Shown here: piece after piece, positions 49,734-50,785 of the stretch
Layout of the letters: every line of letters begins with the position of its first letter
Numbering within the stretch: position 1 is the first letter of the stretch
Virus record (IMG/VR): IMGVR_UViG_3300033076_000375
Span: 32,001 to 96,000 of that record
DNA from: a virus
Taxonomy: Duplodnaviria; Caudoviricetes
DNA length: 64,000 nt
Reading direction: 5' to 3' (one strand)
Notes under the pieces: generated by a model
Seen by the model: only the letters and a program-made list of their open reading frames with translations
Databases searched by the model: none
Told to the model about the DNA's origin: nothing
Made by a program: the position numbers and the translations under genes

Positions 49734-49964
49734 TTAGAAGAAAGGTAATTGAGAATTCTTAGTGGTTTCTAAGTTATCCTCAATAATCTTACTAATGGCT
49801 TTTCGTTCTTCAATAGATAGGTTTAGTATATCTGTGTAGCTAATACCGCCGCGCATGAACCAAGACATTTTAAGACTATCATTCTTAATGTCTATGCAAT
49901 CTTTCTCCATTGCATCTAACAGCTTCTTAATTCCCTCGGAGTCAAGGGAAAGAAGCCTTAATCG
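49734..49964 (-). CDS. gp51: gp51-like hub assembly domain, probably made as a -1 frameshift extension of the gp26-like protein (alternative ATG at 49910, 58 aa)
   Basis: Frame reads RLRLLSLDSEGIKKLLDAMEKDCIDIKNDSLKMSWFMRGGISYTDILNLSIEERKAISKIIEDNLETTKNSQLPFF*; missing from the ORF track. Confidence 0.7.
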   Translation of the reverse strand, partial: RLRLLSLDSEGIKKLLDAMEKDCIDIKNDSLKMSWFMRGGISYTDILNLSIEERKAISKIIEDNLETTKNSQLPFF

Positions 49965-49970
49965 AAAAAA
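49922..49970 (-). promoter_or_regulatory. programmed -1 ribosomal frameshift signal
   Basis: Heptamer T TTT TTC (49970-49964), 7-nt spacer, hairpin GCTTCTT-TCCCTTG-ACTC-CGAGGGA-ATT-AAGAAGC (49956-49922). Confidence 0.75.
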
Positions 49971-50785
49971 TCGGAAACGTTAATGCTAAATTGTTGCTCG
50001 TAATCATGTTGGCAACTTACGCATTTGATTTTCAATGGTTTAGATTCAGTGCTTTGTTTCAACTTGATACTATGATTCTTAATCAAATCAAACGCAGTAA
50101 CATCAATGTTATTCAAAAACTCAACGATGTATGTTTTGTCTATTACGGTTGCTGTTGGTGTTTTGACGTACTCAATACTCTCCGCAATCATTTGGATAGA
50201 TATTGCATTTAGTTCGAGTAAAATTTGTTTGGATTTTTGATTACGTTCGTCATCGTCAGTGACTAATCTCAATCCTTGAATCGCTTTTTGAAACTGGAAC
50301 TGTTTTACACTAGTATCGTTAACAAGTTTAAACGTCAATGGTTTAAACTTGATTTTTATGTTTTCACCCAAACTTAGTGGAGTATCATAGTCACCTTGTG
50401 TAAAGGAACTTAGAATACCTGACAAGTTAATAGTGTACGTTGATGTCTCCTCACATTTTGGACAAACTGAACTTAGTTCCATTGTTCCACCGTGTGTTGC
50501 TGTCTTGATTGCCACTAAGATTGGGTCTAAGTCAACGTTTGATACAATCCAAGGATCTTTGATGTTCGGGGCGCAACTTTTAATAATCTCAACAACTGCG
50601 GTTCCATTAAACAATGCGTCCGGTGTACGTGCTGTGATTTCATCAATCGCAGTCATTGGATAGATTGGGATTTCACCGTTCTCTGGTAAATCTAATGAAC
50701 CTTCTGGATAACCAGCACCACCTGACGGTAGTTTCAAGTAGACTGATGGACGACGGAAATATTGCTGTAATGGATTTTGTTGCAT
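49958..50785 (-). CDS. gp26: baseplate hub assembly protein / tail assembly chaperone (gp26-like)
   Basis: NPLQQYFRRP..YLKLPSGG, PMTAIDEI, two CxxC, ends in DFF; GGAG RBS. Confidence 0.75.
   Translation of the reverse strand: MQQNPLQQYFRRPSVYLKLPSGGAGYPEGSLDLPENGEIPIYPMTAIDEITARTPDALFNGTAVVEIIKSCAPNIKDPWIVSNVDLDPILVAIKTATHGGTMELSSVCPKCEETSTYTINLSGILSSFTQGDYDTPLSLGENIKIKFKPLTFKLVNDTSVKQFQFQKAIQGLRLVTDDDERNQKSKQILLELNAISIQMIAESIEYVKTPTATVIDKTYIVEFLNNIDVTAFDLIKNHSIKLKQSTESKPLKIKCVSCQHDYEQQFSINVSDFFD

Follow-up and report, generated by a model that had tools for sequence, protein, structure and literature searches.

Frameshifting in tail assembly chaperone genes and the case of T4

The production of two tail assembly chaperones from a single gene by -1 frameshifting has been described for the gpG/gpGT pair of phage lambda (Xu et al. 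2004, as summarised in the review PMC5009743), and Atkins et al. 2016 (PMC5009743) state that such G-T frameshifting is a conserved trait of the long-tailed phages, 'except T4'. A second case is that of phage P2, whose E/E+E' tail chaperones are reported to arise by a -1 frameshift on TTTTTTG (Christie et al. 2002, as cited in PMC3091744). T4 carries two genes, 26 and 51, whose products of 208 and 249 aa are listed as 'hub assembly chaperones' (Leiman et al. 2010, PMC3004832, Table 2). According to the same source, gp51 is not a component of the virion and the roles of gp26 and gp51 have been unclear for decades (PMC3004832). Both genes are paralogs of one family, PF12322, they are divergently transcribed, and their products are only about 20% identical to each other. 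A search of the literature found no report of frameshifting in genes of the gp26/gp51 family.

The locus analysed here lies in a window of 64,000 nucleotides taken from IMG/VR virus record IMGVR_UViG_3300033076_000375. This record measures 186 kb at an estimated completeness of 49%, and its source is therefore a giant phage. Comparison of the sequences indicates that the phage's only gene of the gp26/gp51 family very probably ends in a programmed -1 frameshift cassette that would yield products of 275 and 350 aa. The canonical features of such a cassette are all present, namely a phased slippery heptamer, a 7-nt spacer, a stable hairpin and a conserved -1 ORF devoid of a start codon. Like in lambda G/GT, the chaperone gene has its heptamer just a few codons ahead of the stop, the -1 ORF lacks a start and would supply an additional C-terminal domain, the neighbouring gene encodes a tape measure (a putative one in the window), and the products would remain outside the virion, as is known for T4 gp51 (PMC3004832). 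Unlike lambda G/GT, the family is unrelated in sequence (PF12322 only) and a long-form model gave no informative fold match, the gene is divergent from the putative tape measure gene instead of directly upstream of it, and the shared body appears to be an alpha/beta protein of about 270 aa that includes a zinc-ribbon-like element, whereas that of lambda is small and helical. The resemblance to P2 E/E+E', as described in the accounts cited above, resides in the contractile tail, the T-run heptamer and a -1 shift that takes place close to where the chaperone gene ends. The P2 proteins are, however, given there as 91 and 142 aa long and are unrelated in sequence to the window's family, and no downstream hairpin is reported there for P2, while the hairpin of the window's clade is strong. 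With respect to T4, the window protein belongs to the same PF12322 family as gp26 and gp51, and the gene sits beside a tape-measure-like gene just as T4 genes 26 and 51 sit beside the tape-measure gene cluster; the difference is that T4 possesses two paralogous genes and the window phage a single one, whose long form would be made by recoding.

The short-form gene and its slip site

The short-form gene occupies positions 49958-50785 of the minus strand and encodes 275 aa. Its product matches Pfam PF12322 (T4_baseplate) with an E-value of 1.5e-20 and 74.3 bits (cut-off 24.5), residues 33-274 covering profile positions 9-218, and it also matches phrog_150 'baseplate hub'; it belongs to the gp26/gp51 family of baseplate-hub assembly proteins, and T4 gp26 and gp51 both match PF12322 as well. 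Weaker matches were obtained to phrog_13792 (unknown function) and, below threshold, to the NCBIfam zinc-binding model NF038384, and scans of the short form against Pfam, PHROGs and NCBIfam returned no tail-assembly-chaperone family. The short form contains four conserved cysteines arranged in two CxxC pairs, which are putatively zinc-ribbon-like: C108/C111 are invariant, and C255/C258 are nearly invariant in one alignment and invariant in two others.

The gene ends with the codons GAT TTT TTC GAT TAA, which harbour the slippery heptamer U UUU UUC (49964-49970, minus strand) in X XXY YYZ phase, 6 nt ahead of the end of the 0-frame stop. TTTGGGT is the only other phased heptamer across the whole 0-frame ORF. 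The 7-nt spacer that follows, GAUUAAG (49957-49963, minus strand), contains the final sense codon of the 0 frame together with its stop UAA (49960-49958). The -1 frame opens three codons ahead of the heptamer, presents its first ATG, GTG or TTG at ATG 49910, and extends for 78 codons from the heptamer on (49734-49970, minus strand) down to a TAA at 49736-49734. This extension constitutes the C-terminal tail of the long form. The conceptual products are thus 275 aa when the frame is kept and 274+76 = 350 aa when it is shifted, with the junction ...VSDFFRLR.... The earlier note on this DNA had called the phased heptamer TTTTTTC at 49970-49964, a two-stem hairpin at 49956-49922 beginning 7 nt after it, a -1 frame that opens three codons early and lacks a start until ATG 49910, and products of 275 and about 350 aa with this same junction, and sequence, folding and translation bear out each of these points.

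Upstream of the short-form gene, a Shine-Dalgarno sequence AGGAG is found at 50791-50795 (minus strand). The motif TATAAATA, the late-promoter consensus known from T4, is located at 50838-50845 (minus strand), 52 nt upstream of the short-form ATG. Inspection of the sequence ahead of the start of the -1 ORF revealed no comparable promoter or Shine-Dalgarno motif. A gene for a gp55-like late sigma factor was identified by profile match at 44563-45459, and the T4-like late genes of the window further include those for a portal, a prohead protease and a major capsid protein; a gp46/47-like nuclease is encoded in the window too.

Conservation of the heptamer among relatives

An in-phase T TTT TTY is present in all 132 distinct junctions collected from relatives, down to about 28% protein identity, with the sequence TTTTTTC in 130 and TTTTTTT in the other two; the 0-frame stop follows 6-33 nt after the heptamer. 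The earlier note had anticipated that related junctions would share the heptamer and the -1 phase and lack a start codon, and the comparison agrees with it on the 132 junctions, among which no start is conserved. The codon ahead of the heptamer specifies D, N, S, T, H, A or G, yet it ends in T in all 132 cases. Phenylalanine codons elsewhere in the frameshift-type genes are TTT in 71% and TTC in 29%. As judged from these sequences, the conservation of the heptamer is a matter of selection on nucleotides and not on protein. Because both the heptamer and its phase are conserved in every junction, chance can be ruled out as their origin.

Closer to the window, the 83 IMG/VR relatives with 48-85% identity all carry TTTTTTC 6 nt ahead of the point where the stop codon ends, and the length of their -1 frame is always 77 codons. 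A -1-frame stop stands immediately ahead of the heptamer in 49 of these 83, and therefore entry to the frame can only occur within about 13 nt. A second scan of related loci provided 72 further frameshift-type loci. Among cultured phages, the closest relatives belong to the Rak2-like and PA5oct-like giant phages and show 28-30% protein identity. The in-phase T TTT TTY is found in Phosso, Atu_ph07, Xoo-sp13, PA5oct, 121Q, GAP32 and XacN1, 6-33 nt ahead of the end of the stop codon, and the -1 frame of these seven phages opens 1-10 codons before the heptamer and measures 73-90 codons overall. The same cassette appears in Rhizobium phage LG08 and in Cronobacter phage LPCS28 (Straboviridae), much closer to T4. 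LPCS28 (locus L185, 2150-2345) has the identical GAT TTT TTC GAT TAA, a -1 ORF of 65 codons and a single PF12322 gene, which means that the two-gene state is not general even within Straboviridae.

The downstream hairpin

The candidate stimulatory structure is a 14-bp hairpin at 49922-49956 (minus strand), made of two stacked stems (GCUUCUU/AAGAAGC plus UCCCUUG/CGAGGGA) with a 3-nt bulge and a 4-nt loop. It folds with -19.4 kcal/mol (z -3.8), and none of 200 dinucleotide shuffles folds as well. When the 76 junctions of the window's clade and the seven cultured relatives were folded, the mean MFE was -14.2, versus -5.3 in control windows from the same genes; the mean z was -3.3, and 76% of these junctions fell within the lowest 2%. 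Over all 132 frameshift junctions the mean z amounts to -2.3, versus +0.3 for six in-frame homologs, and these six distinct in-frame loci lack both the hairpin and the heptamer at the equivalent position. Since in-frame homologs are devoid of the hairpin, the structure is tied to the frameshift and does not simply result from the peptide that this stretch encodes.

The stems change register between relatives, and for this reason fixed-register covariation is weak (68% of cells are paired and a structure slid by +1 scores equally) and the assessment was based on folding energies compared with internal controls. No consensus structure was obtained with RNAalifold for the junctions of the relatives, and no strong hairpin was found within the 48 nt after the site in 121Q, GAP32, Xoo-sp13 and XacN1 (loci L006, L007, L003 and L008, respectively). 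The conservation of the hairpin expected by the earlier note is upheld as an enrichment across the 76 junctions, but not as a consensus structure nor in these four lineages. The four phages keep the heptamer and the -1 ORF despite the absence of a strong hairpin, and the Xanthomonas phages among them (Xoo-sp13 and XacN1) carry TTTTTTT with the stop 33 nt away. A function of the hairpin as a terminator was also considered and discarded, as no T-run follows it. An Rfam scan at the slip site produced no match.

A model for the production of the two forms

According to the proposed mechanism, most ribosomes would read GAU UUU UUC GAU UAA and terminate there, which yields the short form of 275 aa that corresponds to T4 gp26. 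Some ribosomes would pause over the hairpin that begins 7 nt downstream, and in the paused ribosomes the P-site tRNA (GAU-UUU) and the A-site tRNA (UUC) would re-pair one base back on U UUU UUC. Translation of 76 more codons in the -1 frame would then give rise to the 350-aa long form, whose helical C-terminal tail would represent the counterpart of the T4 gp51 tail. Both forms would be needed for initiation of the hub and the tail tube. Judging by lambda G/GT and P2 E/E+E', the body present in both forms may serve a single client, with the tape measure protein or the hub as the probable candidates, while the extra tail may recruit a second partner. The sequences demonstrate the signal and its conservation, the homology of the long form to existing proteins, and the complementarity between one and two genes. 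Ribosomal slippage itself, the ratio of the two forms and their clients are what we infer from the features of the locus.

Slippage could also take place during RNA synthesis. The site is a homopolymeric T6, and the addition of one U by RNA polymerase would give exactly the same long protein. Productive transcriptional slippage usually needs runs of about 7-9, however, and a run of six falls short of them. Neither would transcription require the X XXY YYZ phase, which is strict in 132 of 132 junctions, and the hairpin, enriched at these junctions and absent from the in-frame homologs, stands 6-7 nt downstream, the position of a ribosomal stimulator. Furthermore, the TTTTTTG of P2, which has been studied experimentally, is described as a translational frameshift in the account consulted (PMC3091744). 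A shift at the level of transcription is accordingly improbable, and ribosomal frameshifting is the reading followed below.

The extension as the probable tail of a long form

Conservation of the extension as a protein starts at the slip site itself (FFR..LL), and in 68 sequences its length and the residues W37, R40, G41 and Y45 are invariant. The first methionine falls anywhere from extension residue 3 to 38 in these relatives, and no start codon is conserved. A profile search with the extension matched 442 proteins among 1.8 billion. The short matches begin at many different positions, which reflects guessing by gene callers. Among the best 150 of the 442 matches, 20 are proteins of 319-351 aa that bear the extension domain at the C-terminus, contain PF12322 and align along the conceptual shifted products. 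The strongest single result of the sequence comparison comes from locus L175 of an IMG/VR record (260 kb, 74% complete), which falls inside the window's clade: its natural ORF of 350 aa (343-1395) is 48% identical over 341 aa to the shifted product of the window, in one alignment that spans the slip site (E 6e-125). Neither Pfam nor PHROGs gave a match for the extension by itself. A confident AF2 model of a natural long form (pLDDT 90, pTM 0.85) folds the extension into three to four helices; Foldseek gave no match for it at E<=0.001, and VIA-align only generic helical-hairpin matches with Z up to 7.1. In the GenBank records of relatives, the extension is either annotated as an orphan small ORF or left unannotated.

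The behaviour of the extension bears on a second explanation, by which the downstream ORF would be an independent gene, started at ATG 49910 or at another internal start and giving a free 58-aa peptide. ATG 49910 does exist, and small separate ORFs are annotated in the GenBank records of relatives. This ATG, however, lies just past the hairpin and is not preceded by a Shine-Dalgarno motif; the first methionine wanders between residues 3 and 38 in the 68 relatives, and in eight of them it falls inside the invariant W.MRGG motif. Two independent genes would likewise fail to account for the protein-level conservation of the stretch upstream of any start, which aligns with single-ORF long forms, and would leave the invariant phased heptamer and the -1 phase of all lineages unexplained. 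We regard independent initiation as very unlikely, and the extension is treated here as the tail of a frameshift product.

The relationship of this tail to T4 gp51 was addressed with profiles. In hhalign, the profile of the shifted product runs along that of the gp51 family (14-340 versus 4-249, E 1.2e-5), and the extension alone matches gp51 residues 221-248 (E 3e-4). Homology of the tail to gp51 is thus suggested by modest profile scores (probabilities 81% and 39%) that are collinear and independent. Comparisons by hhalign against single T4 sequences were too weak for use. A placement of the extension on gp51 161-199 by pairwise BLAST was rejected in favour of the collinear profile alignments. 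T4-type gp51 homologs (P0002-P0093) carry a second Pfam family, PF28602, besides PF12322. T4 gp26 aligns to the short form and ends in ...EFFELL, with FF at the slip-site column; these two residues are encoded by TTC TTT, and T4 consequently has no slip site. The earlier note had interpreted the locus as a fusion of a gp26-like and a gp51-like gene. The short and long pair connected by a -1 frameshift is strongly supported by the comparisons, but T4 genes 26 and 51 cannot be 'fused' because they are divergently transcribed and so are not fusible neighbours. Similarly, the -1 ORF that it had taken for gp51-like does match the C-terminal tail of gp51, but it does not amount to a gp51-like gene, as it is the whole shifted product, and not the -1 ORF alone, that aligns along gp51.

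Recoding or duplication

All nine complete cultured genomes with the slip site (Phosso, Atu_ph07, PA5oct, 121Q, GAP32, XacN1, Xoo-sp13, LG08 and LPCS28) encode a single PF12322 gene, and one is also found in the window's own record, which is about 49% complete. T4 has two, 26 and 51, and two adjacent PF12322 genes occur in five of five IMG/VR records with an in-frame long form. In L175 (343-2265), the in-frame long gene of 350 aa is directly followed by a short paralog of 272 aa that stops four residues before the position of the slip site. The members of this pair are 42% identical to each other and 42-48% identical to the window protein. The tandem arrangement looks like a frameshift gene resolved into two by duplication. 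As the L175 pair lies within the window's clade, its duplication is separate from that of T4 26/51. From this complementarity between one and two genes it follows that both products appear to be required, so that recoding and duplication, as far as the gene content of these genomes tells, appear to be alternative ways to supply them.

It is hardly credible that an error in sequencing the homopolymer, or a long-form gene disrupted not long ago, simulates dual output here: although homopolymer runs are error-prone and in-frame long forms exist in some relatives, the same T6 and phase recur in more than 130 independent assemblies and in nine cultured phage genomes from different laboratories, the in-frame forms differ in sequence at the site instead of having T5 or T7, and the in-frame long-form genomes always carry a second family gene (a separate short ORF in L175), which suggests that a second family product is required.

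On the programmed frameshift reading, what would be new is the use of a known recoding strategy in an unrelated chaperone family, together with a natural contrast between duplication and recoding. T4 relatives, including a member of the family Straboviridae to which T4 itself belongs, would make gp26-like and gp51-like proteins from one gene, and the lineages without the signal carry two genes instead. This offers a concrete and testable model for the function of gp26/gp51 and a clean case from nature in which recoding and gene duplication serve as interchangeable solutions. Annotations in hundreds of phage genomes would be corrected as well, since the extension is at present either listed there as an orphan small ORF or overlooked. 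More tentatively, and with chances that we place slightly below even, the gp26/gp51 family may be the long-missing tail assembly chaperone of T4-type contractile tails, with UUUUUUC frameshifting as the ancestral state and the two genes of T4 as the derived one. If this were true, T4 26/51 would go back to a duplication through which the short form and the long form each acquired a gene of their own, an event that would have occurred independently at least twice (in T4 and in the L175 tandem pair of the window's clade). The 'except T4' gap would then be an accident of the model phage, and the gp26/gp51 puzzle could be tested as a G/GT-like system.

The neighbouring tape-measure-like gene and the surrounding region

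The putative client is encoded next to the cassette by a divergent gene (50856-53204, plus strand) for a protein of 782 aa. The ESM Atlas clusters closest to it consist of tape measure proteins (0.91), and its AF2 model consists almost entirely of long helices over residues 1-531, without a compact fold (pTM 0.29). The protein has no match in Pfam, PHROG or NCBIfam nor among PDB sequences, and BLAST aligned it neither with T4 gp29 nor with the neighbour in PA5oct. Phosso, PA5oct, 121Q and GAP32 have the same neighbour in divergent orientation, annotated as a virion structural protein and 720-832 aa long. The 782-aa protein is probably the tape measure protein, and the gp26/gp51-type pair would by analogy be the G/GT equivalent for this adjacent tape-measure-like protein.

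Towards its C-terminus, residues 569-701 of the 782-aa protein match Peptidase_M15_3 models. This M15-like region resembles Peptidase_M15_3 and VanY-type models in structure, and an H..D / HxH motif (SxHSKGKAFDF ... GPHLHA) is conserved within residues ~570-680 (window ~52560-52900, plus strand). The modelled structure suggests an embedded domain of LAS/M15 type, that is, a cell-wall hydrolase built into the tape measure.

Elsewhere in the window, the structural region contains a single ORF of 5394 aa at 17091-33275 (minus strand), which presumably encodes a giant fibre or virion protein; after it come ORFs of 1117, 1038 and 839 aa. Just downstream of the stop of the extension, a gene-free stretch extends from 49201 to 49560, where two transcription units converge.
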